64,000 nt of DNA. Source: Dehalococcoidia bacterium. GTDB lineage: Bacteria > Chloroflexota > Dehalococcoidia > Lucifugimonadales > JAAXIE01. The stretch's first letter is position 1, and each line of letters starts with the position of its first letter. Made by a program: the position numbers and the translations under genes. Below, piece after piece: positions 1,768 to 63,540 of the stretch. A model generated the notes under the pieces. It was not told the origin of the DNA. It saw nothing but the letters and a program-made list of their open reading frames with translations, and made no database searches. The DNA is taken from positions 3,589,039-3,653,038 of the forward strand of contig OZ240229.1 of assembly GCA_965197805.1 (NCBI GenBank). The letters run 5' to 3'.

Positions 1768-1857
1768 TGGTCGATTCCTTTCTAACAGAACGTAAGCATT
1801 TTGGAGATTTCCATAGGACCCCTGAACGCTTTATAGGGGGCAGATACCGCAATGAGG

Positions 1858-2103
1858 CTATCCGTCATCGGAAGTCTCTTCCCGATCAAACCGGTCCCGT
1901 CGTTCCTGTAATGTTTCCCCTTCATACAACCAAGTACAAAGTACCTGCCGCGCTGTGCTCCCACCCTTTAAGCTGTTGAGCTAACGTAAAGATCGCCCAC
2001 TCATTTCCGTTGTAACGGACGCGAGTCTTCTCGTTAACAACTTCGCATTCGATTTCATCATCGTCCACTCATTTCAGGATCGAACCAATCGGAATGCTGA
2101 CCA
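1858..2103 (-). pseudogene. Decayed C-terminal half of the T5orf172 gene
   Basis: Downstream of the TAA at 2104, the other frames read MVSIPIGSILK*VDDDEIECEVVNEKTRVRYNGNEWAIFTLAQQLKGWEHSAAGTLY and then WLYEGETLQERRDRFDREE. From memory this is the usual C-terminal domain of T5orf172 proteins. It needs two frameshifts and contains one in-frame TGA. Confidence 0.5.
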
Positions 2104-2568
2104 TTAAAATGTGAAATTTGGCCTCCTTGGAGGTTTTTCTCTCTCGATATCCTCAGTGTCTATTGCCGCCGGTCCTTCCGGGGTCACATCACTGATCTCG
2201 AGAAGCTTCAGAACTGCTTTCACCCTAAACGGCATGAGCCCTTCGAAAAACTCTCGATTCTCTCGCACTCTAAATTCGCCGAAAGCCGTATGCAGAGCCG
2301 CTCCTACGTTGCCATAGTTCTGGACCTCGGCAGCGTACTCGCAATCGAAAGCCCGCGACATGTTGGTGGAATCCAGTTCTTTCATCCGCCTCTGGACGTC
2401 GGCTGGGGAGTCGCCGCTAGTCTTACCTATCTTGATATAGCCTTGCATTGCTGGGTTGCTGAGCACATACACGATACCGTTATTATCAATGGCACCGGCG
2501 GACTGACCTACGACTGGCGGTTGTTGCGAGAGTGGTTCCTGTTCACCAAAGTTGGGCTGCTCAGCCAT
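2104..2568 (-). CDS. T5orf172 / GIY-YIG-superfamily domain protein (N-terminal domain intact)
   Basis: GIVYVLSNPAMQGYIKIGKT...VQRRMKELDST...FRVRENREFF matches the T5orf172 (MUG113-like) domain pattern. Confidence 0.7.
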   Translation of the reverse strand: MAEQPNFGEQEPLSQQPPVVGQSAGAIDNNGIVYVLSNPAMQGYIKIGKTSGDSPADVQRRMKELDSTNMSRAFDCEYAAEVQNYGNVGAALHTAFGEFRVRENREFFEGLMPFRVKAVLKLLEISDVTPEGPAAIDTEDIEREKPPRRPNFTF

Positions 2569-2620
2569 ACTTGCCCCCTCGCATTATCAGGCCGGGACTT
2601 AAGGCGACACTGGACGTCCC

Positions 2621-2833
2621 CTAGTAACCAAATTCAGGCTTATGCCCTCTAACTCTGTCTTGTCTGATCAATATCCACGAGGGAGTGTCAGGGCGGGCTG
2701 GGATGCCCTCCATAGCAGCTTCGCTGAGAATAACCCGCGCCTCGTCGTCCAGCGAGCGATTGTTTGCGAATGCTCGGAGTTCCAGCATTTCAATCACTTG
2801 TTTGCCCAAGCCCTCAACTTTGATAGCATCCAC
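2621..2833 (-). CDS. Arc/FitA-like ribbon-helix-helix antitoxin-type protein (no cognate PIN toxin present)
   Basis: AIKVEGLGKQVIEMLELRAFANNRSLDDEARVILSEA resembles the FitA/VapB RHH pattern (IRNLdd..L..rA..ngrS.E.E.R.IL). Confidence 0.55.
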   Translation of the reverse strand: MDAIKVEGLGKQVIEMLELRAFANNRSLDDEARVILSEAAMEGIPARPDTPSWILIRQDRVRGHKPEFGY

Positions 2834-2951
2834 AATATCCCTCAGCCCGTTGCTAACAACATGATGCCAAGTAGTTTAAGACAAAAGGGCTTGCTCAAGA
2901 TCCACCCCCCAAACGCGTCGTAAACTAGGGAGCAGCTAGCAGAGCCTGCCC

Positions 2952-3866
2952 CTAGCCGACTGACGTCGGGACTGGCGCAGGGTTGTAGAGTTCGACGCCA
3001 ATGGTGGCTGGGAAGACGTTGATGATCTCCTCCACTGTCCAGCGGCCGTTTTTGTGGATGGTCTTCACCGGCTCCGGCTCGTTCAGCAGGGCCACCAAGC
3101 CTTCAGTCACGTTGAATATACGACCGTTGACATGGGACGCCTCGTCCGAGGCCAGCCAAGTCACGAAGGGGGCTACGTCCTCGGCGACGCCACGCAGGCT
3201 ACCGCCGGGAGCGATGCCCCGGGCAGCCCGGAGCTGACGCGCCTCGTCGGGCACCTCGCCAATCATGCGGGTGGAGGCACTGGGGGAGATGGAGTTGACG
3301 GTGGCGCCGTAACGCCCAAGATCGCGAGCAGCGACACGAGTCAGCCCAGCGATGCCGTCTTTTGCAGCGCCGTAGTTGGCTTGGCCAGAGTTGCCGTAGA
3401 GGCCGGATGTGGAACTGAAGGTAATGAACCGGCCTGAACGCTGTTGCCGGAAAAGTATGGAGGCGTACTTCATGAGGGTGAAGGTGCCCTTGAGGTGAAC
3501 GGCGATGACGTCGTCCCACTCCTGCTCACCCAAGTTGAAGAGCATCCTGTCCCGTAGAATGCCATGGCAAGTGACCACGATATCCAGCTTGCCGAAGTTA
3601 TCGATGGCCATCTGCACGATTCTTTCGCCAGCATCCATGGTGGTCACTGATTCGTAGCAAGCCAGAGCCTCGCCACCAGCCTCCCGGATGAGGCCCACCG
3701 TCTGGTCGGCTTGGGCGACATCTTGGCCGCTGCCGTCGACATTCACGCCGGGGTCGACCACGACCACCTTGGCCCCCTCGGCGGCCATCAGCCGAGCCAC
3801 TCCTTGGCCGATTCCCCTGCCGGAGCCGGTTACGATTGCGGATTTGCCTTGCAAAAGGTTTGCCAT
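2952..3866 (-). CDS. SDR-family oxidoreductase, MFE-2-type 3-hydroxyacyl-CoA dehydrogenase-like
   Basis: GKSAIVTGSGRGIGQG Rossmann motif. NSGQANYGAAK catalytic Y-x3-K. About 50 aa C-terminal extension. Confidence 0.9.
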   Translation of the reverse strand: MANLLQGKSAIVTGSGRGIGQGVARLMAAEGAKVVVVDPGVNVDGSGQDVAQADQTVGLIREAGGEALACYESVTTMDAGERIVQMAIDNFGKLDIVVTCHGILRDRMLFNLGEQEWDDVIAVHLKGTFTLMKYASILFRQQRSGRFITFSSTSGLYGNSGQANYGAAKDGIAGLTRVAARDLGRYGATVNSISPSASTRMIGEVPDEARQLRAARGIAPGGSLRGVAEDVAPFVTWLASDEASHVNGRIFNVTEGLVALLNEPEPVKTIHKNGRWTVEEIINVFPATIGVELYNPAPVPTSVG

Positions 3867-5992: not shown

Positions 5993-6160
5993 GGCAACAC
6001 CTTCAGCAAGACATACGTTCAGCGGATGCGCGCCCGCAGTTTAAGGATGGCTACGAATGGGTGTCAAGGCGGCTCGTAGCTAAGGGCAGGACCTCTCGTT
6101 TGTTGGCGGGGTGGGACATAACGTGCTACCTTTTGAGATTGCGCAGCTATGGAGGGTGTG

Positions 6161-6296
6161 CCATGGTGTCCCATTCTTGTAGCTGGATGAGATACTGGTT
6201 GTATTTGCAAAAATGTTATTTACATCTGATTGTTGTCTCATTTGTCTCACCGCCAGCTTGGGTCGTATCTGAGACAGTGGAACCGTGGTGTCCCAT
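6161..6296. repeat. Word-array locus D: two copies of TGGTGTCCCAT plus scaffold words shared with loci A and B
   Basis: TGGTGTCCCAT at 6164-6174 and 6286-6296. The reverse complement of 6169-6186 is CCAGCTACAAGAATGGGA, identical to 14593-14610. The reverse complement of 6260-6273 is CTCAGATACGACCC, 13 of 14 identical to 59143-59156. Confidence 0.7.
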
Positions 6297-6520
6297 AGGG
6301 CGTCGGGGCAGGCAAGGGACTACCTTCTTTCTTCGTCGCCAGGGGCTCTTCCCCAAGGCCTCAAGGAACATGATATACCCAGGCAAGGTTACTGGGGCAA
6401 GGGCTGTTTGTCAGTGTCCAGTCCCCGTGTCGGGTACAGTGGCGGGCTGTCGCATGAGAACAGGTGGAAGGGTAGGGATATGAGATAGTCGAAAGGCCCT
6501 GTAGCGTAGCTGAAGGGGGC

Positions 6521-8695
6521 CTATAGCTTCTGTAGTGGGGCCATGCCCAGAAGCAGCTTCTTGATGCCGGTCTTCTCGTCGAAGGCGACGGTGGCCTGCA
6601 CATCGCCGTTGGCCACGACGGTGTTGATTACCATGCCCTCACCGAACATCTTATGGAGGACTTTGTCGCCCGGTTTGAGTTCCGTCTCTGGCTCGGCGGG
6701 TTCTGCTGGGGCCCACTTGCCCCAACCGGAGATGGACTGCTGCTGTTGTGGCCTTTCGGGTGCCTGCACCAAGTGTCTTGGGATGTCTTGTAGGAAGCGG
6801 GACGGGATGCTGGGGCCGCTGTTATATCCGAAACCACGACGGAAAGAGCGCACGAGGAAGATGCGGTCTTTGGCGCGGGTGATGCCCACGTAGCAGAGCC
6901 GTCGCTCCTCTTCCATCTGCTTTTCGTCATCGAAGGAGCGTATGTGGGGCAGCATCCCCTCCTCCATACCGACTAGGAAGACCACGGGAAACTCCAGCCC
7001 TTTGGCTTGGTGCAGGGTGATGAGGGTCATCCCCTCCTCGCCCTCCTCGTAGTTGTCCACATCGGCCACTAGGGCGAACCGTTCCAGCAAAGAGTTGAGT
7101 CCTTCCGGCGGGTCTTGGTCCTCGAATTCCTGGGCCACCGTCCGCAGCTCTATCACGTTCTCCCATCGCTCATCGGGGTGCTCCACCTTCTCCTGCAGGT
7201 ACTGCTGGTAGCTGATGCGCGCCAACAGAGTGTCCAGCAGTTCCACCACATCCAACTGTCGGCTGAGCTCGGCGAGGTCGTGGATGAGCTGGTAGAAGCC
7301 TTTCATCGTGGTCGTAGCCCGCACCCCCAAGGGGCTAGTGGCCTCGCCATTGGCCATCTGCTGGATGGCCGTGAAGATGGGGACGTCCTGATGCGCAGCC
7401 CAGCGTTCCAAGTCTTCCAGAGAACGTTGGCCGAACCCCCTCTGTGGCGTGTTGATGACTCGCCTCAGGCTCACCGCATCGTTGGGGTTGGCCAGCAGAC
7501 GCAGGTAGCACATCAGGTCCTTGACCTCTTGACGCCGGTAGAAACGAGTCCCGCCCACCAGCCGGTAGTGCGTCCCACGACGCAGGCAGGCTTCCTCCAG
7601 TAGGCGCGATTGGGCGTTGATGCGGTACATAACGGCGCAATCGCGGGCCGGTATCCCTTCTTCCTTCTCCAATCGGGCTGCCTGCGCCACCACAAAATCG
7701 GCTTCCTCCTCTGCGGTGTGGGCCTCGGCGACGATAATGGGAACGCCATCGCCTCGACCGGTGCTCAGCGGTTTCCGCAGGGACATGAGGTTGCCAGCGA
7801 TGACCCCTTGGGCGGCGGCTAGGATGTTGCCTGTGGAGCGGTAGTTCTCCACGAGGTTGACTGTCTTGGCTTCTGGGTATTCATTCTGAAAGCTTAGTAT
7901 GTTGCGTATGTCCGCGTTGCGCCAAGCGTAAATCGACTGGTCGGGATCTCCCACCACGCAGATGTTGCGGTGACCACCGGCCATCTGCGTGGCCAACTGA
8001 TACTGCACCACATTGGTGTCTTGGAACTCGTCGATCATCACGTACTGGAAGCGGGTCTGGTAGCGCTCCAGAACCTCAGCATCAGTGCGGAACAGTTGCA
8101 CCGCCTTCAGCAGCAGGTCGTCGAAGTCGACAGCGTTGTTGCGTGTCAACAGATCTTCATACCGCTGGTAGGCGCGGGAGGCCCGCTCCTCGAAGTAGTT
8201 GGCTGGGTTCAGTGCGAGGGTGCGCGGGTCGACCATGGTGCTCTTGGCCTTGGATATGACGGCCTGCACCGCCCGACGCGGGAACTGCTTGCTACTGAGG
8301 TCGGCCATCTCTATGGCCTCTTTCAGCACACTCCCTTGGTCGTCGTCATCGTAGATGGTGAAGCCAGGGTCGAGCCCGATACGGTCGCCTTCCCGACGCA
8401 GCACACGCACACAGAAGGAGTGGAAGGTGGACATGGCAACCTGCTGGGCGTCGGGACCAGCCAAGCGGTCCAGCCGCTCCTTCATCTCCCGGGCCGCCCG
8501 GTTGGTAAAGGTGACAGCTAGGATGCGGTAGGGACGAATGCCGTACCCGCCCATCAGGTAGGCGACGCGGTGGGTGATGACCCGCGTCTTGCCGCTGCCG
8601 GGGCCCGCCACGATGAGCAGTGGGCCTTCGGTTGTCTCCACCGCCTCCCGCTGCGCGGGGTTCAGACCTTCCAGTATGTTTCGGGTAGTAGTCAA
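6521..8695 (-). CDS. pcrA: ATP-dependent DNA helicase PcrA/UvrD
   Basis: Walker A AGPGSGKT, DEFQDT, and a collinear UvrD helicase motif set across 724 aa. Confidence 0.95.
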   Translation of the reverse strand: MTTTRNILEGLNPAQREAVETTEGPLLIVAGPGSGKTRVITHRVAYLMGGYGIRPYRILAVTFTNRAAREMKERLDRLAGPDAQQVAMSTFHSFCVRVLRREGDRIGLDPGFTIYDDDDQGSVLKEAIEMADLSSKQFPRRAVQAVISKAKSTMVDPRTLALNPANYFEERASRAYQRYEDLLTRNNAVDFDDLLLKAVQLFRTDAEVLERYQTRFQYVMIDEFQDTNVVQYQLATQMAGGHRNICVVGDPDQSIYAWRNADIRNILSFQNEYPEAKTVNLVENYRSTGNILAAAQGVIAGNLMSLRKPLSTGRGDGVPIIVAEAHTAEEEADFVVAQAARLEKEEGIPARDCAVMYRINAQSRLLEEACLRRGTHYRLVGGTRFYRRQEVKDLMCYLRLLANPNDAVSLRRVINTPQRGFGQRSLEDLERWAAHQDVPIFTAIQQMANGEATSPLGVRATTTMKGFYQLIHDLAELSRQLDVVELLDTLLARISYQQYLQEKVEHPDERWENVIELRTVAQEFEDQDPPEGLNSLLERFALVADVDNYEEGEEGMTLITLHQAKGLEFPVVFLVGMEEGMLPHIRSFDDEKQMEEERRLCYVGITRAKDRIFLVRSFRRGFGYNSGPSIPSRFLQDIPRHLVQAPERPQQQQSISGWGKWAPAEPAEPETELKPGDKVLHKMFGEGMVINTVVANGDVQATVAFDEKTGIKKLLLGMAPLQKL

Positions 8696-8708
8696 GAAGC
8701 TTGTCGGG

Positions 8709-8942
8709 CTACTCGGATTTTCCGTTGGCGGGAATGGACCGGAGTAATTTCGCTTTCAGCTCTTCCGACACTTCTGCCCCTTCCAACACCTTCTCCAACT
8801 CCGCCCGTGCCTCTGCTTGGGCTTGGGCACGACCTTCCGCCCGGCCCTTATCAAGTAGATGTTTCACTCTTCCCGGAACGAACAGCACCATGGCAACTAT
8901 CGCCTCCATCACGAGTATGGCAAACCCGGCGCTCCCGGCCAC
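8709..8942 (-). CDS. Small hypothetical membrane/coiled-coil protein upstream of pcrA
   Basis: N-terminal hydrophobic segment FAILVMEAIVAMVLFV followed by a charged A/E/R-rich tail. Ends 14 nt before the pcrA start. No recognisable family. Confidence 0.35.
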   Translation of the reverse strand: MAGSAGFAILVMEAIVAMVLFVPGRVKHLLDKGRAEGRAQAQAEARAELEKVLEGAEVSEELKAKLLRSIPANGKSE

Positions 8943-9204
8943 TGCCCCCCACTGTCGGCAATCGCGGGTCAGCTATCGCGCTCGCGTCCCACTGTAGCGG
9001 CCACCCCCACCATATCCAATAGCCCGTGAGAGGAAACAGGGCAAGGCCATTGCTCCGAGTGTATTTGCGGCGCGTTCCGGGTGTCAATGAAGGCGCGTCA
9101 CTCAGGGCTACTGACCCTACGTTTACAACCAACCCCGCTTATGCTACAACCCAACGAATAGATGGCATCCGTCGATACAAGTCGGCTGCCCCGGAGGTTT
9201 GCGC

Positions 9205-11154
9205 ATGGCGGAACAGCCTGCCAGCATCGAAGCCCTGTTGGAGGAGGACCGAGTCTTTCCTCCCTCCCCCGAATTCGTACGACAGGCCAACATCAACGAC
9301 CCTGGAGTATATGAAGAGGCGGAGCGTGATTTCGAGGGCTTCTGGGCCCGCTTCGCCGACGAGCTGAGCTGGTTTCGTAAGTGGGACAGCGTGCTGGAGT
9401 GGGACCCGCCCCATGCCAAGTGGTTTGTGGGGGCCAAGACAAATGTCTCCTACAACTGCGTCGACCGCCACCTTGCCACCAGGCGCAACAAGGCGGCCAT
9501 CGTGTGGGAGGGCGAGCCCGGCGACTGGAAGGTCTACACCTACTGGGACCTCTACCGCGAGGTCTGCCAGTTCGCCAACGTTCTCAAGAGCTTGGGCGTG
9601 GCCAAGGGCGACCGTGTGACCATCTACCTGCCCATGGTGCCCGAGTTGCCCATCGCCATGCTGGCCTGCACCCGAATCGGCGCAGCTCACAGCGTCATAT
9701 TCGGTGGCTTCAGCCCCGACTCCATACGCGACCGCATCGAGGACTCCCAGTCCAAGCTGCTGATTACCTCCGACGGAGGGTTTCGCCGGGGCAACATCCT
9801 TCCTTTGAAGCGGAACTGCGACGAGGCTATCACCGGCGACACCACCATCGAGCAGGTGGTGGTGGTACGACGCACCGGCCACGCCGACGACCTGATGCAG
9901 GCCGGACGCGACCGCTGGTGGCACGACCTGATGCAGGGCGCATCCCAGAAGTGCGAACCGGAACCCATGGATGCCGAGGACATGCTCTACATGCTTTACA
10001 CCTCAGGCACTACGGGCAAACCCAAGGGCATCGTCCACACCACAGCCGGATACATGGTGGGGACTTATGCCACTGCGAAATGGATATTCGACCTCAAGGA
10101 AGACGACGTCTACTGGTGCACTGCCGACATTGGGTGGGTCACTGGGCACAGCTACATCGTCTACGGCCCCCTCTCCAACGGGGCCACCACTGTGATGTAC
10201 GAGGGCTCTCCCGACTTCCCTGACCGCGACCGCTGGTGGTCTATCATCGAGAAGTACGGCTGCACCATCTGCTACACCGCTCCCACCGCCATACGCACCT
10301 GCATGCGCTGGGGCGAGGAGTACCCACAGAGACACGACCTCTCCAGCCTCCGACTTCTGGGCTCGGTGGGCGAACCAATCAATCCTGAAGCCTGGATCTG
10401 GTACCGGAAGAACATCGGGGCCGACCGCGTTCCTGTGGTGGATACTTGGTGGCAGACCGAGACGGGCATGATACTCATCGCCCCCCTTCCCGGCATAACT
10501 ACCCTCAAGCCGGGCTCGGCCACCCGCCCCTTCCCTGGGGTGCTGGCCGATGTGGTGGACGAAGCAGGAAACTCGGTCGGCCTTGGGTCTGGTGGATACC
10601 TTGTGCTCAAGCGACCGTGGCCTGCCATGCTGCGCACCATTTACGGAGACCCGGACCGTTATGTAGAGCAGTACTGGGCGCGTTACCCCAACATCTACTT
10701 CACCGCCGACGGCTCCAAGCGGGATGCCGACGGCGATTTCTGGCTGTTGGGCCGCGTGGACGACGTCATCAACGTATCGGGCCACCGCATCAGCACCATG
10801 GAAGTGGAGAGCGCTCTCGTCGACCACCACACCGTGGCCGAGTCTGCCTCCATCGGCAAGAGCCACGAAATCAAGGGTCAGGCTGTCGTCTCCTTCGTCA
10901 CCCTCAAGGAGGGCATTGACGGCACCGACGATCTGATGAACGAGTTGAAGCGCCATGTGGCCACCAAGATCGGGTCCATGGCCCGACCCGACGACATTTT
11001 CTTCACTGCCGAGCTTCCCAAGACCCGCAGTGGCAAGATCATGAGGCGCCTGCTGCGGGACGTGGCTGAAGGCCGGGCCTTGGGCGACACCACCACCCTC
11101 GCTGATCCAGGCGTGGTGGAAGCCCTAAAAGAGCAGTACGGCGACGAAGAGTAA
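9205..11154 (+). CDS. acs: Acetyl-CoA synthetase (AMP-forming)
   Basis: [14 protein letters not shown]-binding motif and full-length Acs collinearity. ATG 9205 has GGAGG 7 nt upstream. The ORF track starts at TTG 9199. Confidence 0.95.
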
Positions 11155-13954: not shown

Positions 13955-13984
13955 TTGACAGTCCGCGTACAAACGTTCTACTAT
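13955..13984 (+). promoter_or_regulatory. Candidate sigma70-type promoter (TTGACA-18-TACTAT)
   Basis: TTGACA at 13955-13960 and TACTAT at 13979-13984. Confidence 0.4.
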
Positions 13985-13997
13985 CTACTCATGTGCT

Positions 13998-14041
13998 GCG
14001 CCAGGGGACTGACCCCTGAAGGGTCCCTTGGCGTTTTCTTT
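13998..14041 (+). terminator. Conserved hairpin plus T-tract (intrinsic terminator or leader attenuator), copy 1
   Basis: GCGCCAGGGGAC...GTCCCTTGGCG stem followed by TTTTCTTTT. The core AGGGGACTGACCCCTGAAGGGTC (14003-14025) recurs at 58709-58731 with one substitution. Confidence 0.55.
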
Positions 14042-14116
14042 TCAGTCGCCTCTACCCCCTCAGTTAAGAAGGAAAGCTCCGGGAGACCCCACCGACACGT
14101 TCCAGGAGGAACTCCC

Positions 14117-14554
14117 GTGAGCAAGTCAACGCGACACGACACCCAGACGCCCGTCAACGAGATCGCTGACAACGGTACCTATGCCACCTTCCATGCCACT
14201 ACCCGGGCAGCCAAAAAGGAGAAATTCATCCAAGCTCATCACTGGGGTGCCACTGTCGCCGAAGCCGCCCGCTGGGCTGGCATCCCCATGTCCACCCTCT
14301 ACCGCTGGCGCGACAAAGACCCCAAATTCGCGCAGGCCTGGACCGAATCCCGCCGCAAACTCGTTGAGAGTCTCGAGAGGGAAGCCTTCCACCGTGCTGC
14401 CAACGGCAGTGACCGTATGCTCGCTTTACTCCTCAAGTCCTACAAGCCCCGCACCTACAACCAGCGACCATCCGCGCCCCACGACCCGCACCACAGGAGA
14501 AACGACCCTGCTGATGTCGCCAATCTCGTCGAGAGAATTCGTGCCTGGGCCTAA
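14117..14554 (+). CDS. Phage-type HTH protein, terminase-small-subunit-like
   Basis: ATVAEAARWAGIPMSTLYRWRDKDPKFAQAWTESRRKLVESLEREAFHRAANG is the pattern common in phage small terminase/HTH proteins. GTG 14117 has AGGAGGA 7 nt upstream. The longer ORF from 13856 overlaps the Ldh_2 gene. Confidence 0.55.
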   Translation: MSKSTRHDTQTPVNEIADNGTYATFHATTRAAKKEKFIQAHHWGATVAEAARWAGIPMSTLYRWRDKDPKFAQAWTESRRKLVESLEREAFHRAANGSDRMLALLLKSYKPRTYNQRPSAPHDPHHRRNDPADVANLVERIRAWA

Positions 14555-14560
14555 ACTCCC

Positions 14561-14773
14561 ATGCAAAAATGGGAATCCGGTTCAGATACGGCCCAGCTAC
14601 AAGAATGGGAAAATGGGAATCAAAACAGCTACGAAAAACAGCGCGCCAGATACGACTCGATTCCCATTTTGTATCTGGCAATGGGCAATCTACGGGAAGA
14701 GAATGGGAGATATCAGCCACGAAAATGGGAATGAAATGAGAATATCATTCCCATTTCTCGGGAATGGAATGGG
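14561..14773. repeat. Word-array locus A: about ten AATGGGAAT-type words in both orientations
   Basis: AATGGGAAT at 14568, 14612 and 14724. AATGGGAA at 14604. Variants at 14680, 14702, 14735 and 14762. Inverted ATTCCCATT at 14660 and 14747. CAGATAC at 14583 and 14647. CAGCTAC at 14594 and 14626. Inverted repeat GCCAGATAC/GTATCTGGC at 14645-14679. Confidence 0.85.
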
Positions 14774-14783
14774 CCCTCCAACT

Positions 14784-18985: not shown

Positions 18986-19752
18986 CCGCCGTCGACTATC
19001 AAGTGGTGTCCCGATGTGGCGCTGGCCGAAGGGCTGGCGAGGTACACGCAGGCGCCCACCAGTTCTTCCGGCTGCATGCGGCGCCCCAAGGGCATGTGGG
19101 CCTCCAAGTCGCGCTCCAACTCTTCCTCGGTGCGGACGTCTGTCTCCAGCAGGCCAGGGGTCACGGTGGGGCCAGGGCCGATGGCATTGACGGTGACCCC
19201 CAATGCCGTCCACTCCAAGGCCAGCACCTTGGTCAGGTTCACCACGCCGCCCTTGCTGGCGCAGTATGCCGAGCGGTTCAAAGCACCCACTGTGCCCAAC
19301 TGCGACGCGATATTGATGACACGTCCGCTGCCGCGGGGCACCATATGGCGAGCGGCGGCTTGGGCACAGAAGAAGAGTCCTTTCAGGTTGGTGTCCACGA
19401 CCCGGTCCCAGTCATCCTCGCTAACCTCCAAAGCTGGCCTGCGCACTCGCACTCCGGCGTTGTTCACCAAGATGTCCAGTTGCCCAAAGTCCTGCACCAA
19501 TCGGTCTATAGACTGACGCATGGCAGGCACGTTCAGGACGTCGACCTCGTACGTTCCACTGCTGCGGCCCATGGCCTCGATTTCGGCTTGGACGCCACGG
19601 GCTTCCTCCAAACGCTGCGCCATATCGGAGACGGCCACGTCCGCTCCGGCTTCAGCCAACCCCAAGGCGAGAGCTCGCCCTATTCCACGCGCAGAACCGG
19701 TCACCAAGGCTACCTTGCCTTCTAGGCTCAACCCCGAATATGCCATGACCAT
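18970..19752 (-). CDS. SDR-family oxidoreductase (FabG/gluconate 5-dehydrogenase-like)
   Basis: VALVTGSARGIGRA, NNAG, and YCASKGG catalytic Y-x3-K. Confidence 0.9.
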   Translation of the reverse strand: MVMAYSGLSLEGKVALVTGSARGIGRALALGLAEAGADVAVSDMAQRLEEARGVQAEIEAMGRSSGTYEVDVLNVPAMRQSIDRLVQDFGQLDILVNNAGVRVRRPALEVSEDDWDRVVDTNLKGLFFCAQAAARHMVPRGSGRVINIASQLGTVGALNRSAYCASKGGVVNLTKVLALEWTALGVTVNAIGPGPTVTPGLLETDVRTEEELERDLEAHMPLGRRMQPEELVGACVYLASPSASATSGHHLIVDGGWTAI

Positions 19753-26902: not shown

Positions 26903-27019
26903 TGGCGCTAAGGTGTGAGGGAGGGTGAGCCTCTACTACACGCTATTGGGCGGTCCGCGATCCGATTGACACCCTTCCGGCATCGCCATAGAATGGCCCC
27001 GCTTTAACAACTTAATAAG

Positions 27020-27185
27020 CAGTCCCGGGTACCCACAGGGTTTAAGAGGGAAGGCGGTGTGAGACCGCCGCGGTAGCGCCACTGTAATTGGGGAGCGGGC
27101 CGGCAACAATCCACTGTTCCATTAGGGATGGGAAGGGGCCGGGCCCGTAGTGATCCATGAGCCAGGAGACCTGCCCGGGAAAGCG
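27020..27185 (+). promoter_or_regulatory. Cobalamin (B12) riboswitch
   Basis: AAGAGGGAAGGCGGTGTGAGACCGCC...GCCACTGT...B12 box GAGCCAGGAGACCTGCC. The P1 helix pairs CCCGGGT (27024) with CCCGGG (27174). Lies upstream of a BtuF-like operon. Confidence 0.85.
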
Positions 27186-27255
27186 GAGCCCTACTCTGCG
27201 CGTGACGGAGTCGGCTCTCGGAACGCCTGCGGCGGCTTCAGCCAATGCCTTTCCG

Positions 27256-30384: not shown

Positions 30385-31515
30385 TCACCGGGTGAACTGA
30401 GTCATCACCCCGAGGTTGGCCTCAAGTGTGTCGCCGTTGACCAAGACCAGCCCTTCTTGCACCAGCGTACGGATATCGCGCTGCAGTGTTTTACTGGAAA
30501 CGCCCTTGTACAAGAACGACAGCTGTCCTTGCCCCGCCCTGAGGGTCTTCAGTGATAGCGGACGGTCTGCCACACCTACCAGTAAGCCAAGTTGTCTCTC
30601 GCCGGCGCGACTCCCCAATCTGCCAGCCGACGCGAGAGTCTCCCGTGCGAAGTCGCGAAAGGATATCACCGTGACCTCGTCCAGCACCTCTCGGTGGACG
30701 GCTTCCAACTCCTCCTCCAGCCCCCGCAACGCGAACATTACGAAAGGACTCAAGTCCGGGTCGCTCACGAACCTCACATGATCTAGCATTGACACGTACT
30801 CGGGTCGATTGCGGTAATAGTAGTTGGCTAGGGAGTAGTACCCCCGCGCATTTACCCCAGCCTGGTATAGTAAATAGCTCTCCACAGCCCTAGACGTGCG
30901 ACCGTTTCCATCTCCGAAAGGATGAATGCTGATAACGTAGAAGTGGGCTACTATGGCTCTTATCACGGGATTCCAATGGGCGGCGGAGCCAGAGTTAAAC
31001 CACTTGAAGAACTCCGCCATCAGTGCCCTCACCGCGTCGCCTTCCCTCGGAGGTAGATATGTGCCTGCCTGAACGGGAAACGTGCGATATCGGCCGGGAG
31101 TGTTGTTAGGGTAGCCAATATCTTTCGTGATGGTCCTGTGGAAGTGTCGCACCAGTTCCTCCGTTAGAGGGGCAGATGGCTCAGCCCTCAGCCTCTCGGC
31201 GACGTAGCGCATGACTTGGTCGGCATTGCGTACCTCTTGCTCATCCCGAGCTCGGCCTTCCGGAAGAACACGCCTCTCCGTAGGAGTGTCCAGGATGTCC
31301 TGCACCTCCTCTTCGGATACCTCGGTGCCCTCGATACCTGTGGTCCCTCGCACCGCTCGCATGATGTTTAGGCTATCGAGCCGGTTTTGGACAAAGGGTG
31401 GGATGGGTATACCCCGAATCACCGACGCCATCGCGTCCACCTTGAACAGCAGCCTCAGACACTCCGGGTCTGCCATGTCCACTCGCATATCAAAGTGGAC
31501 ATCCCAGCGTGGCAT
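30385..31515 (-). CDS. Class II Fic-family protein (AMPylase-type) with C-terminal winged-helix domain
   Basis: Fic motif HPFGDGNGRTSR. N-terminal inhibitory-helix motif TTGIEG ([ST]xxxE[GN]). Start taken at ATG 31515 (GAGGAG upstream). The first 13 codons of the ORF track coincide with operator palindromes. Confidence 0.85.
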   Translation of the reverse strand: MPRWDVHFDMRVDMADPECLRLLFKVDAMASVIRGIPIPPFVQNRLDSLNIMRAVRGTTGIEGTEVSEEEVQDILDTPTERRVLPEGRARDEQEVRNADQVMRYVAERLRAEPSAPLTEELVRHFHRTITKDIGYPNNTPGRYRTFPVQAGTYLPPREGDAVRALMAEFFKWFNSGSAAHWNPVIRAIVAHFYVISIHPFGDGNGRTSRAVESYLLYQAGVNARGYYSLANYYYRNRPEYVSMLDHVRFVSDPDLSPFVMFALRGLEEELEAVHREVLDEVTVISFRDFARETLASAGRLGSRAGERQLGLLVGVADRPLSLKTLRAGQGQLSFLYKGVSSKTLQRDIRTLVQEGLVLVNGDTLEANLGVMTQFTR

Positions 31516-31528
31516 GGGAACTCTCCTC

Positions 31529-31626
31529 TGGACATTGTCCAGGACAATGTCCACCAGTACTTCATAGTTATATCATATCTGATAATTATGGACATACTTG
31601 TGGACAATGTCCACACGAATGTCCAC
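31529..31626. promoter_or_regulatory. Operator array upstream of fic: TGGACAWTGTCCA palindromes
   Basis: TGGACATTGTCCA at 31529-31541. GGACAATGTCC at 31542-31552. GTGGACAATGTCCAC at 31600-31614. AATGTCCAC at 31618-31626. TGGACAT at 31589. CAGTAC at 31554 and GTACTG at 31633 flank the array. Confidence 0.6.
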
Positions 31627-31821
31627 TAATGTGTACTGCTGAACGGCCCGGATCACAGCGATTTGCAGGCCCCAACTTCCTCCAGCGGGCCCTGACCCCC
31701 CAACACCCCGGTAACAAATACCGTACAGACGTTCTATAATAACGCTGGAGCGTGCTGGAACTGACCCCAAAGTTGGCGTGTCTCCTTCTGTTCAGTAGCT
31801 AACCCTCTTGACACTCTCACC

Positions 31822-31850
31822 TTGACATATACGTACATATATTCTATAAT
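31822..31850 (+). promoter_or_regulatory. Consensus sigma70 promoter TTGACA-17-TATAAT
   Basis: TTGACA at 31822-31827, a 17-nt spacer, and TATAAT at 31845-31850. A second TTGACA lies at 31808. Confidence 0.6.
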
Positions 31851-35327: not shown

Positions 35328-35403
35328 GTCCCAGTAGCTCAGGGGATAGAGCAGCTGCCTTCTAAGCAGCGGGTCGCGGGTTCGAATCCTGCCTGGGACG
35401 CCA
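35328..35403 (+). tRNA. tRNA-Arg (anticodon TCT), CCA encoded
   Basis: Hand-folded cloverleaf. Acceptor GTCCCAG/CTGGGAC, D arm GCTC..GAGC, anticodon stem GCTGC/GCAGC with loop CTTCTAA, T arm GCGGG-TTCGAAT-CCTGC, discriminator G, then CCA. Total 76 nt. Confidence 0.95.
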
Positions 35404-35420
35404 CCTCAGCTACGAAATAT

Positions 35421-35455
35421 CTTGGGACCACCCATCGCTCAAGGGTGGTCCCAAG
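35421..35455 (+). terminator. Perfect 13-bp hairpin downstream of tRNA-Arg
   Basis: CTTGGGACCACCC-ATCGCTCAA-GGGTGGTCCCAAG. There is no clear T-tract. Confidence 0.45.
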
Positions 35456-35629
35456 GGCAAAGAGTCGCCGGGTCGGGCGGCTTTTCTTATGCCACGAGGC
35501 ATATCCGACACGCTGCCTGCCCTCGCTCGTGAGTCCGGTTGCGACCCCCTCCTGCTTGCCTGACAGACAATTCTCGGAATCGAGGCAAGTACGTGACATG
35601 GCTACTAGATCGAGAGTGCGGAGCCGGAA

Positions 35630-35975
35630 AGTGGACGCAGGAAATCTGGAACTCGCCGGGTTGACGAAGCAGTTCGAGATCCACAACAAATCGGATGGCA
35701 AGTCCCACCGGACGGTGGAGTGGTACAACGAGGTCCTGGACATATTCATGGGCTAGCTAGGGGCGGAAGGGATGTCCACCTGCCTCGATGACCTGGGCGA
35801 GGATGAGGTCAGGCACTTCATCCTCCATCTCCAGGGACGGGCAGGCCTGCGGGGGCAGGCGTCAAGCCACACGGTAAACAACTAGGTCAGGGCGTTACGG
35901 CTTTCTTAAACTGGTTGCACGTACAGGGTTACACCGAGTGCCACAGACTGGAAAAACTGAAGGTCCCCGAGGTGC
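35630..35975 (+). pseudogene. Tyrosine recombinase/integrase remnant (N-terminal SAM-like domain only)
   Basis: KSHRTVEWYNEVLDIFMG*LGAEGMSTCLDDLGEDEVRHFILHLQGRAGLRGQASSHTVNN*VRALR, then a frameshift to AFLNWLHVQGYTE.HRLEKLKVPEV. In-frame TAGs at 35754 and 35883. The catalytic domain is absent. Lies next to a tRNA. Confidence 0.65.
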
Positions 35976-58668: not shown

Positions 58669-58750
58669 TTGACACCCACACCCCCTCCCGGTAACCTCAA
58701 AACAAGGCAGGGGACTGACCCCTCAAGGGTCACCCCTGCCTTTATTCTTG
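58669..58750 (+). promoter_or_regulatory. Candidate promoter (TTGACA-17-TAACCT) followed by the conserved hairpin plus T-tract, copy 2
   Basis: TTGACA at 58669-58674 and TAACCT at 58692-58697. The hairpin GGCAGGGGACTGACCCCTCAAGGGTCACCCCTGCC spans 58707-58740 and is followed by TTTATTCTT. No annotated gene lies upstream on this strand. Confidence 0.4.
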
Positions 58751-58788
58751 CCCGCGAATCAGCGGTGGCAGGATGAGCGGAAATGAAG

Positions 58789-59172
58789 AATCGGCGGAAA
58801 TCAGAACAAGTTTTCAAAGCTGCGCCAGATACAACTGTCGGAACAATCGGAACAACTCCAGATACAAAAACTTCTTTCCAGCTACAACCATGTTCCGATT
58901 GCCAGCTACGAATCGTGCCCTTTGGCTGACGCCCTTCCACACGGCACCCATTATGACAAAGCTCTCTCAGATACGGCCAAGGCCTAAATGTGACGTGCTG
59001 CACTTGCAAAAAATCTCGCCAATCGGAACAAGCTTGCAAGCAGGCTCACATACTACCGTCGGAACAATCGGAACCTCTCCGATACCCGCTACCGCTGCAG
59101 GTGCAAAAACCCTCCTCTTTCGGAACAGGCCTGCAAAGCTGACTCAGATACGACCGTCGGAACATTCGGAAC
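58789..59172. repeat. Word-array locus B: AATCGGAAC/GTCGGAACAWTCGGAAC words
   Basis: The 17-mer GTCGGAACAATCGGAAC occurs at 58837 and 59058, and GTCGGAACATTCGGAAC at 59156. Each is preceded by CA(G/C)ATACNACYG. AATCGGAAC at 59021, TCGGAAC at 59120, inverted GTTCCGATT at 58892. CAGATAC at 58826, 58859, 58968 and 59145. CAGCTAC at 58879 and 58903. Confidence 0.85.
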
Positions 59173-59277
59173 ACTCCCCGCGATGATGAGGCGGACTGCT
59201 GGCATAAAGGCACTATGTGGAGTATCGTATGGGCTCTACGGCAAGGCTCGCCCTATAACACATCAGGAGGCGCGATA

Positions 59278-62060: not shown

Positions 62061-63540
62061 ATGCGAACAGGGGCAGAGTACAAAGAGAGTTTGCGCGATG
62101 GGCGCGACGTATGGGTGATGGGCGAAGGCCCGGTGGCAGACGTCACCACAGACCCGGCGACCTCGGCCATGGTGAATGAGTACGCTGCATGGTATGACCG
62201 CCACTTCGACCCCGTCGGCCCCGTCGGCCCCGTCGGCCCCGTCCGCCCTGTCGGCCCTGTCGGATGCACCCGGCCAGCGGCAGCCTGTTGCCTTCACGCC
62301 GCCTGAGACGTCTGCGGATTTGAGGCGCTTGGGGAAGGCAATCAGTGCAGTCCATTCCCTGGCCGGGGGAAACATGACTCACACCCCAGGCTACGGGGCC
62401 TTGATTGCCTTGGGGTTCCTGAATGTTCTCAAGCGGCTGAACCACTCCTCCGAGGAGATTGAGGCGGCTGAGGCGTATCTGGAATCTCTGGCTGGCAGCG
62501 GCAGGTTTCTCACCTTCGCCGGAGCTGGGACACTGATTGGGACACGGCTCCGCGAAACTGAGAGTGAGCGGGCGGCGCTCCGTGTGGTTAGCGAGACCGC
62601 TGAGGGCATCGTGCTGAGTGGCAAGCTCCAGATGCACACCAGTACGCCCTTCGCCGAGGACGTGCTCATCACCTGCAGGGATGAGTTGCCACCGGGCAGC
62701 GGCAGGTTCCTGTGGTTCATCGTGCCGGTGAACTCCCCCGGCATGCGGGTGGTGGCCCGCCGGCTCGCCGCCAAGCACGACAATCCCTTTCTAGCGCCCT
62801 TGAGCAGCCGGTTTGATGAGCTGGACGCCATGCTCTGGCTGGAGGACGTTTTCGTCCCTCGCTCTCGGATTTTTGCCGCCGAACCTCTGCTGCGGAACCT
62901 GTCTGGGCGCCATTCGCTGGTATCCTGGCTTCTCTGGCATCACAGCTACGGCTGGCTCGCCAAGGCCGAATTGACCCTCGGCCTCGCCCTTGCCTTGGCT
63001 GAAGTCATGGGGTTAAAGGGCAATCCCCAGACAATCGAGCAGTTGGTCGAGCTGACCGTCAGCGTCCAGACCACTCGCACCTGCATGACAGCAGCGGAAC
63101 TGGACCCGGAGACGACGGTGGGCGGGCATGCCCTGCCTAACCAGCTCCACTTGGCCGCTGCAGGGATCAACACCCTCAGAGTGCGCCAGCGGATGACTGA
63201 AATCCTGCGTGGCCTTCCCGGTTCGTCCTTGGTCAACGCCCCTGCCGACACCGACTTCGCAGACCCGAGGATGGCTGCCGAACTGGAAGATGCCTTTGGC
63301 GGGGGCGGCTACACTGCCATGCAAAGAGCGGCCCTCTTACAGCTCACCTGGGACCAAGTTTCGTCGGGGTTGGACGGACGAGAATCAGCCTTCGAGCTCC
63401 ATGCCAGCGGCGGGCTGGAAGTATGGCGACGCCGCTTATGGGTCTGGTTCGAACGCTGCAACGAACTCGCCAACGGCGTCCAGCACCTCCTCGAGATAGC
63501 CAGACCGCCCATCGACCTGACCAACCTCCAGAAATTCTAG
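62061..63540 (+). pseudogene. HpaB-family (4-hydroxyphenylacetate 3-monooxygenase / 4-hydroxybutyryl-CoA dehydratase-like) gene, reading frame broken at a 9-bp microsatellite
   Basis: The N-terminus MRTGAEYKESLRDGRDVWVMGEGPVADVTTDPATSAMVNEYAAWYDRHFDP (frame of 62061) is the canonical HpaB start. The rest of the family-like sequence (..QPVAFTPPETSADLRRLGKAI.. to the end) is in the frame of 62176. The switch lies within or next to 62221-62274. Confidence 0.7.
62221..62274. repeat. 9-bp microsatellite, six units (CCCGTCGGC x3, CCCGTCCGC, CCTGTCGGC, CCTGTCGGA)
   Basis: Counted directly in the sequence. It encodes (PVG)n in one frame or (SAP)n in another. Confidence 0.95.

Follow-up and report, generated by a model that had tools for sequence, protein, structure and literature searches.

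A stretch of 64,000 nucleotides from a metagenome-assembled Dehalococcoidia (Chloroflexota) genome (GenBank assembly GCA_965197805.1, contig OZ240229.1, positions 3,589,039 to 3,653,038; hereafter the window) carries clustered short words in three intergenic loci, designated A, B and D, which by alignment and profile searches are homologous members of one dispersed family of repeat arrays. The family is real and lineage-specific and, as far as the tools and libraries used show, undescribed. Locus D occupies the 528-bp gap that separates the pcrA stop (6521) from the first base of the FAS1_DH/MaoC/SDR operon (5992), both on the minus strand, and judged by its sequence it is a true but degenerate member. 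We favour the explanation, with a probability of about 0.55, that these arrays of sponge/marine-type Dehalococcoidia are pac-type sites recognised by the small terminase subunit (TerS), and that D is a decayed, gene-less orphan copy; the most probable ancestor of its array is a site recognised in phage DNA packaging.

Clustering of the shared words far exceeds chance. An 18-mer, CCAGCTACAAGAATGGGA, reported in the initial annotation as common to D and A, occurs exactly at 6169-6186 (minus strand) and 14593-14610 (plus strand), and nothing else in the window matches it at three or fewer mismatches, where shuffled sequences would give 0.01 occurrences. Likewise borne out were the similarity between D and B, in which the reverse complement of 6260-6273 (CTCAGATACGACCC) agrees with CTCAGATACGACCG at 59143-59156 in 13 of 14 positions, and the word repeated locally within D, ATGGGACACCA, which the minus strand carries twice (6164-6174, 6286-6296). 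The 64 kb contain 15 instances of the motif AG[AC]TAC[GA]A, 12 of them within loci A, B and D, which cover less than 2 kb combined. Moreover, CAGCTACRA (6 observed, 0.62 expected), TCAGATACGRC with at most one mismatch (7 against 1.3) and TGCAAAAA (6 against 0.83) are each 5-10 times more frequent in the window than expected. A fourth locus, E, lies about 4 kb beyond the left edge of the window, giving four arrays within about 70 kb.

The core common to these loci consists of a direct double word, a spacer with two boxes and then the word in inverted orientation. The word measures 7-8 nt, its direct copies follow each other with a period of 8-9 nt, and the spacer of 36-39 nt holds two direct boxes (consensus CAGMTACRA) with 20-21 nt from one CAG to the next; in most cases extra word copies and an upstream box (YCAGATACGRCC) come before the core. 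A scan for two boxes enclosed by perfectly inverted arms of 7 bp or more, around a loop of 28-48 nt, recovered nine cores, six of them independent, with stems of 8-12 bp and loops of 36-39 nt, and zero cores in 402 kb of reversed-sequence controls. The six independent cores carry six words (AAAATGGGAATC, AAATGAGAAT, AAAATGAGAAA, TGAGACAC, ATGCCAGAG and CAATCGGAACA). In a nearly gap-free alignment of seven cores (A4), on which pairing of the 12-bp arms was tested, 7 of the 12 arm pairs showed two-sided changes and no pair a one-sided change, 86% of the cells paired, none of 500 shuffles equalled the observed values, and all slid registers collapsed. Neither G-U nor one-sided changes were present among the 84 arm cells, the unpaired direct copies of the word changed in concert with the arms, and boxes and words also occurred the other way round (as in GTATCTGG, in core 2 of D and in the units of L087; here and below, L numbers designate compared sequences and P numbers TerS proteins). 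Taken together, these three features point to double-stranded DNA sites rather than to an RNA helix.

A profile hidden Markov model (HMM) trained on units of other genomes only, with no window sequence, matched the 64-kb window at A (1e-23), at the first unit of B, B1 (1.4e-6), and at D (6276-6186, minus strand; 1e-5), and nowhere else. With all units included, the matches in 458 kb of Dehalococcoidia sequence were confined to the loci described here, and the reversed sequence gave none. The initial annotation had proposed a dispersed element family, an idea to be abandoned if no further copies existed; such copies were found at locus E in L001 (a 97.5%-identical strain, ENA contig ERZ25067264:ctg835997), in L026, L027, L028, L086, L087 and L088, and in the terS genes of L080, L084 and L090. 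Rfam 15 returned no match to the arrays at the gathering score and noise only at E<=5 on three loci. A 17-mer pattern met eight chance matches in viral contigs, all coding, and a 29-nt two-box pattern met one chance match in viral contigs and 43 unrelated ones in JGI metagenomes; the family was reached only via the TerS protein in ENA/NCBI assemblies.

The link to DNA packaging begins with a stand-alone, small-terminase-like helix-turn-helix (HTH) gene, six bases past whose stop array A begins. Its product matches PHROG 4044 (terminase small subunit, 5.5e-17) and 4102 (2.2e-8), and its Pfam Sf6_terminase match falls below the cut-off. Searches with its AF2 model (mean pLDDT 70, core 80-88) placed Sf6 gp1 (3HEF) and phBC6A51 at the top of the PDB, with a probability of 0.9 and a weak E-value, and terminase small subunits at the top of BFVD (E=7e-4). 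The product shows the family similarity of a TerS and is predicted to have its fold, an N-terminal HTH followed by long helices. Homologues at 47-79% identity have a homologous array directly behind them (P0027: 51% over 58% of the query), and such gene-plus-array modules occupy the same syntenic slot in L024, L025 and L027 and other loci in L026, L028 and L088, those of L028 and L088 being upstream of an amidohydrolase gene. A profile search yielded about 55 protein clusters at E<1e-32, nearly all from ENA assemblies of this lineage, with P0022 and P0023 on one chromosome, that is, at least two paralogues.

True terS genes are also present among the paralogues (P0018, P0015, P0022, P0023 and P0031), each overlapping the start of a 480-600-aa large subunit (TerL); compared with the window gene, identities are 48% for P0018, 45% for P0015, 43% for P0031 and 42% for P0022. 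The neighbour is assigned to PHROG 2, which is TerL, at about 1e-32 for P0018, P0015 and P0022, and is probably TerL for P0023 and P0031, given a 500-510-aa product overlapping the terS stop; the P0018, P0015 and P0031 clusters continue with a portal gene (PF04860). The full array architecture is contained in codons 6-31 of P0015 terS (L084; CAGATACAAC, TGGGACTAATGGGACT, GGATACGGAAAAA...CCAGCTACAACGAA, ATTCCCA) and in the 5' coding sequence of P0031 terS (L090; CAGATACAACCG, TGAGACCAATGAGACT, CCAGATACGAAAAA...CCAGATACGACGAA, AGTCTCA), and a partial one, two boxes 21 nt apart, in codons 18-26 of P0018 terS (L080), which was matched at E=2e-8 by a model built without it. Upstream of P0022 terS (L086) stand three tandem units with the word GTGAGACA, which include the CAGATACGGC...CCAAGCTGA arrangement also seen in D and, at 3740-3800, repeat the layout of D in which the upstream box (box0) is joined by CAAGCTG. 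Indeed, arrays homologous to D lie in or next to the small-terminase gene of terS-terL-portal modules, and a 16-mer in core 1 of D, TGAGACAAATGAGACA, recurs unchanged in the terS-linked array of L028 (872-887). Furthermore, prophage packaging genes (L080, L087) are preceded by a sigma-70 promoter, a hairpin (GGGGACTGACCCC...GGTC...CCCC) and a T-run; the same promoter-hairpin head precedes the stand-alone gene at A and, at B, directly precedes the arrays with no gene between. The shared leader and 5'-terS architecture suggest that the window loci are copies of the leader/5' region of a phage packaging operon.

Regarding these paralogues, P0018 TerS recurred without change in 23 or more contigs (37 index blocks) of numerous samples (L073-L082, e.g., L080 2640-6432), in most places shown with the neighbourhood HicB / GIY-YIG ... 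Zn-ribbon open reading frame (ORF) / terS / terL / portal. Different genes lay upstream in L073, L075 and L082, terL seemed split in several assemblies, and the cluster looks like a very widespread prophage or a conserved cluster resembling a gene transfer agent (GTA). The 208-aa gene call at L086 3378-4004 spans the three array units and is probably spurious, arising from stop-poor repeats.

Which word predominates in an array goes with the two amino acids in front of TLYRWR, the invariant part of the HTH recognition helix. The pair MS is associated with ATGGGAA (window, L024/25), KS with TGGGACT (P0015), VA with ATGAGAA (L026 and L027, two modules, L027 being the orthologue of A), RA with TGAGACA (stand-alone in L028 and the true terS of L086, two independent modules) and RT with ATGGCACA (L088, the orthologue of L028). 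For KA (P0031), TGAGAC was predicted before the locus was looked up, and TGAGACC, TGAGACT and AGTCTCA were then found. At word position 3, Ser before the invariant Thr pairs with G (TGGGA) and Ala with A (TGAGA), in direct and inverted copies alike. This correlation argues, indirectly, that TerS reads the words.

In this context, the HTH recognition helix of an oligomeric TerS would read the words, and helix and words would co-evolve as a consequence; the invariant boxes between the words may be a common site for terminase cleavage, assembly or a host factor, and the TerS-array complex would mark the start of packaging. In the window genome, array A accompanies a stand-alone terS paralogue, the arrays of B, D and E are gene-less, and D, with two cores in opposite orientation, is most likely a relic cassette left between pcrA and the maoC-type operon.

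Conservation is consistent with a function of the intact arrays. Array A differs from its L024 counterpart at one position in 229 nt (99.6% identity), and the promoter plus hairpin of A at two in 181 (98.9%), whereas the flanking genes are 81-91% identical, with a dS of 0.18 and dN of 0.109 for the terS-like gene and a dS of 0.43 for the neighbouring Ldh_2 gene. Conservation of the two non-coding patches thus exceeds that of synonymous sites nearby about 40-100-fold, which argues for selection on intact arrays. The more distant L027 is 69% identical to array A, with the word switched throughout.

Small ORFs within the arrays were considered and rejected. The overlapping 57-aa and 56-aa ORFs of array A had no family matches, and the switch from TGGGAA to TGAGAA yields in-frame TGA stops in L026 and L027; by these sequence comparisons the arrays are not conserved coding sequence, yet they are homologous to the N-terminal coding region of terS. 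It was also observed that the plus strand at 14556-14731, about 175 nt, has no stop in any frame, where roughly 10 would be expected (a hand estimate at about 42% GC), and that the translation of one frame, NSYEKQRARYDSIP, resembles the way true TerS proteins begin (NSYEKKRSSYDAG).

The coordinates of the loci are collected in Table 1. The decayed boxes of D align with CAGCTACGAAAAA and CCAGATACGAC of array A and fall within its profile match, and core 2 gives a weak second match (6186-6155, E=0.07). The segment at 6394-6426 may be a hairpin remnant, by its resemblance to GGGGACTGACCCCAAACAGGTCGGCCCC upstream of terS in L087. A search for terS pseudogenes in D, B, E and the corresponding slot of L003 found none that was significant, the best (E=0.14) lying just 5' of array E; in the window the stand-alone gene at 14117 is the only terS or terL, so that D itself has no terminase gene within or beside it. 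With its boxes decayed and no terS, D is best regarded as a relic, most likely inactive.

Table 1. Positions of the array loci, their parts and associated genes and promoters (window coordinates unless a compared sequence is named).
Feature	Position	Strand	Description
Locus D, intergenic	5993-6520		clustered words
D possible hairpin remnant of cassette	6394-6426	-	possible degenerate 5' hairpin, GGGGACTG...ACAAACAG..CCCTTGCCCC
D upstream word	6286-6296	-	ATGGGACACCA; 13 nt (6273-6285) before box0; same place as the single upstream word of array A and of units B2/B3
D box0	6261-6272	-	TCAGATACGACC, then CAAGCTGG at 6253-6260
D core 1 double word	6232-6249	-	TGAGACAAA followed by TGAGACAAC (TGAGACAAATGAGACAAC); aligned as word-a/word-b
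D core 1 spacer, decayed boxes	6197-6230	-	ATCAGATGTAAAT at 6218-6230; GCAAATACAACC at 6197-6208
D core 1 right arm	6188-6194	-	TATCTCA, inverted word with one mismatch to TGTCTCA; position as in intact cores
D 18-mer	6169-6186	-	CCAGCTACAAGAATGGGA; box CCAGCTACAAG plus word start ATGGGACAC; junction of core 1 and core 2
D core 2, opposite orientation	6112-6173	+	word TGGGACA at 6112-6118; inverted word TGTCCCA at 6167-6173
D core 2 box-like words	6125-6132; 6144-6152	+	GCTACCTT; CAGCTATGG; GCTAs 21 nt apart
Promoter of FAS1_DH/MaoC(/SDR) operon	6038-6067	-	sigma-70 type, TTGACA-18-TAAACT
Locus A cassette head	13955-14043	+	promoter TTGACA-18-TACTAT at 13955-13984; hairpin GCCAGGGGACTGACCCCTGAAGGGTCCCTTGGC at 14000-14032; T-run
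Stand-alone small-terminase-like HTH gene	14117-14554	+	145 aa; recognition helix MSTLYRWR
Locus A, intergenic, intact array	14555-14783	+	word AATGGGAAT, at least 7 copies on both strands; core 14610-14670
Locus A box0	14582-14593	+	TCAGATACGGCC
Locus B cassette head	58669-58750	+	promoter TTGACA-17-TAACCT at 58669-58697; hairpin AAGGCAGGGGACTGACCCCTCAAGGGTCACCCCTGCCTT at 58704-58742; T-run
Locus B, intergenic	58770-59214		clustered words
Locus B arrays	58801-59173	+	word TCGGAAC, 9 copies; full core B1 58844-58901
Locus B partial units	B2 59022-59075; B3 59120-59173	+	upstream of Rieske oxygenase gene
Locus E	L001 19050-19240		word ATGCCAC/ATGCCAG; full core 19123-19177; upstream of luciferase-like monooxygenase gene

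The GTDB genomes closest to the window are metagenome-assembled Dehalococcoidia, and the surroundings of D vary between relatives. In L003 and L005, in which the acs-pcrA-maoC synteny is kept, homology ends at the pcrA end and resumes at about 6071 (about 6068-6074 for L002-L005, next to the maoC promoter); this break identifies 6075-6520 as a variable slot. No arrays were found in the maoC regions of relatives L002-L013. The slot holding array A is likewise variable between related genomes, and its L003 counterpart has GGAAT-type words and one box only. In L003 the pcrA-maoC gap (8324-9921, with an equivalent in L005) contains a 370-aa reverse-strand ORF as well as a second copy of the last 110 bp of pcrA, which lies at 9535-9645 and shares 75% identity with window 6525-6638; this content shows the slot to be a rearrangement hot spot.

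Several observations weigh against TerS recognition as the explanation. The helix-word correlation is based on nine modules, about six of them independent, and the isolated DNA-binding domain of TerS from SPP1/SF6 showed little preference for pac repeats (PMC4737164), so that readout of specific words cannot be taken for granted in a TerS. No terL adjoins the window gene or its relatives in L024-L028 and L088, all of which stand alone; terL adjacency being confined to the paralogues, the gene is a TerS homologue with at most a putative packaging role, and its dN/dS is high (0.61). D is 100% identical between the window and L001, inside a 1.25-kb block free of any differences, and is uninformative in this respect. 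The orphan arrays (B, D, E and that of L087) carry words that differ from the word of the window terS-like gene. Finally, six of seven arrays are directed toward a catabolic or transport gene downstream of them, those of B and L087 sitting between a good sigma-70 promoter and the gene, so that a regulatory role fits at least as well.

Such a role is the most serious rival, although we judge it unlikely. The stand-alone TerS-like HTH proteins would here be terS-derived transcription factors, the words their operators and the boxes a promoter-proximal or co-regulator site, and the arrays, D included, would control downstream catabolic operons by roadblock or activation, perhaps with the terminator-like hairpin (antitermination). 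The contexts agree with this, with the maoC operon behind D, the Rieske oxygenase behind B, the luciferase-like monooxygenase behind E, DLH in L026, amidohydrolase in L028/L088 and a permease in L087. Moreover, box-like words (AGCTACGAG at 6073-6081, minus strand; GCTACGAATGGG at 6050-6061, plus strand) flank the -35 element of the maoC promoter, several species retain, in one syntenic slot, a stand-alone module that lacks terL and whose non-coding parts are strongly constrained, and genomes have several paralogues. However, array A has no downstream gene, the neighbouring GNAT gene being convergent; the architecture also lies within the 5' coding ends of terS genes that precede terL and portal, where an operator for host genes makes no sense; the same promoter regions lack arrays in relatives L002-L005; and the boxes of D are decayed.

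Functionless debris, namely decaying leader/5' fragments of prophage packaging operons in which slippage or gene conversion, not selection, keeps the words in concert, seems improbable to us. D is visibly degenerate, the reduced word and box content of the array A slot in L003 and the close relatives lacking arrays would agree with decay, and so would the fruitless search for terS pseudogenes in D, B and E. Nevertheless, conservation of array A and its promoter-hairpin reaches 99-100% against a synonymous divergence of 0.18-0.43, independent modules show the words following the recognition helix, with an out-of-sample prediction that held, and four copies within about 70 kb, all pared to exactly the array, would be odd products of random deletion.

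A structured RNA, be it a transcribed leader, a 3' untranslated region (UTR) or a small RNA whose arms form a hairpin with the boxes displayed in a big loop, e.g., to a protein, is very unlikely. The strong compensatory change in the 12-bp helix, the position of arrays downstream of promoters (B, L087) or in the would-be 3' UTR of a terS-like mRNA (A), and their fixed orientation relative to neighbouring genes would suit it, but the arms show no G-U or one-sided intermediates, unpaired and inverted copies behave as described above, and no Rfam match appeared even at E<=5.

The initial annotation had read the loci as relic arms of integrative elements. Of that proposal, origin from a mobile element is retained, in the form of a phage, and the scaffold and local words are real, but their identity is that of conserved boxes and variable recognition words of TerS-associated arrays, not of integrative arms. 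Attachment sites, or a transposable repeat of the miniature inverted-repeat (MITE) type, are hardly credible, even though the D and A slots differ between related genomes and the family derives from prophage DNA, since no integrase, tRNA or target-site duplication was found at A, B, D or E, and the copies lack shared terminal inverted repeats and differ in their core words (six words), unlike transposed copies. A test for MITE or insertion-sequence features found no shared termini or duplications at the module borders. Copies D and A do occupy variable slots, but no copy coincided with a tRNA gene or an integrase at A, B, D or E. As reported, the word CAGCTACGA is present 3' of tRNA-Arg(TCT) (35328-35403), at 35407-35415; as a family link it failed, a single CAGCTACGAA being at chance level (0.62 such 9-mers expected per window), with no array architecture and no profile match. 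The integrase remnant supposed beside this tRNA was not recovered, the 52-aa ORF at 35598-35753 and its neighbours having no Pfam integrase match; between tRNA and ORF lies a GC-rich hairpin (35415-35452).

Other candidate identities were tried and rejected. Reading TTGCAA/TGCAAA as -35 with GATACG/CATACT as -10 gave inconsistent spacing (17, 9 and 35 nt), a sigma-54 GG-N10-GC element was off register by one, and an extracytoplasmic-function (ECF) type GGAAC...CGTC was unmatched; canonical TTGACA/TATAAT promoters are present elsewhere in the window. A CsrA-type sponge RNA, a rolling-circle replication nick site (TACTACGAC-like) and repetitive extragenic palindromes of the REP/RAYT type (GTAG) were discarded for inconsistent hairpin placement, both motif orientations and no partner genes.

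Compared with known systems, the arrays most resemble the pac sites of headful phages, whose partner is likewise a TerS with an N-terminal HTH. The pac site of P1 has flanking hexamer repeats inside pacA, and that of P22 lies inside gene 3. In SPP1/SF6 (boxA/B/C direct repeats), as in the arrays, short repeated motifs flank a central region and overlap both the promoter/leader and the small-terminase gene at its 5' end (PMC4737164). The arrays differ from known pac sites in their exact conserved geometry (double word, two boxes 21 nt apart, inverted word), in the readable helix-to-word correlation, and in having copies away from terminase genes and behind stand-alone terS paralogues. Lambda cosB has the order R3-I1-R2-R1, is bound by gpNu1 and is bent by integration host factor (IHF) between inverted R sites. 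Like cosB, the arrays combine inverted and direct repeats, TerS-bound in lambda, with a spacer that holds a conserved site for what may be another factor, beside a small-terminase gene; unlike it, the arrays yielded neither a nicking site of the cosN kind nor an IHF consensus, the spacer boxes are direct repeats of different sequence, and some arrays lie within terS coding sequence.

Satellites of the SaPI type redirect packaging with their own TerS, and pseudo-pac sites are chance chromosomal look-alikes. Both parallel the arrays in having packaging-signal-like chromosomal sequences and terS paralogues apart from terL, whereas the arrays are homologous copies with altered specificity words, and the stand-alone terS lacks island genes (integrase, replication and capsid-size genes). 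Plasmid Rep and omega-type regulators act on iteron or heptad operator arrays, which share with the present ones direct and inverted short words by the gene of the reader protein, the words varying among relatives; in contrast, the arrays are accompanied by a TerS homologue instead of a Rep or ribbon-helix-helix protein, have a two-box spacer and no replication genes.

To our knowledge, few model phages have a known pac site, and the way in which TerS locates it is still debated. In this respect, an uncultured lineage offers an alignable site architecture in which words shift with single helix residues (Ser with G, Ala with A), with copies inside terS genes and also dispersed before host catabolic genes. 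If TerS recognition were confirmed, a readable TerS-DNA code would be available, packaging starts and transduction hot spots would be predictable from Dehalococcoidia sequence alone, and the question whether bacteria or satellites retain 'orphan' packaging signals would have a test case. A bolder version, which we consider quite doubtful, is that the arrays are working, re-addressable packaging signals, in which stand-alone TerS and dispersed arrays, each a 7-nt address read by two to three helix residues, let prophage or GTA-like terminases start headful packaging at chosen chromosomal sites toward catabolic clusters; it would amount to a built-in means of transducing metabolic genes in a targeted manner, with a simple code for the recognition of DNA by protein. 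For annotation, the family accounts for puzzling AT-rich, repeat-laden intergenic islands; D itself, as a probable relic, is of little functional weight.

Concerning the genes beside locus B, the Rieske oxygenase probably starts at ATG 59229, with GGAG six bases upstream, and not at ATG 59215; its 439-aa product from 59215 has no record in the gene collection. The 12-mer CTGGCATAAAGGC of locus E recurs just before this gene (59199-59211). In comparison with L001, a segment of about 1.2 kb is replaced (window 1771-2951, L001 7168-8000), and single-nucleotide differences are strongly clumped, which suggests recombination blocks.

Among other features of the window, palindromic words (TGGACATTGTCCA / GGACAATGTCCAC) occur in at least four copies at 31500-31640, where a Fic-domain gene begins (30385-31554, minus strand), with strong TTGACA/TATAAT promoters at 31730-31850; they look like an operator region outside the array family. 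At 62210-62240, the 9-nt unit CCCCGTCGG is repeated three times in tandem and overlapped by ORFs at 62176..63540 (plus strand) and 62143..62778 (minus strand). A cobalamin riboswitch (27010-27192, 117 bits) lies upstream of ORFs starting at 27245 and 27357.

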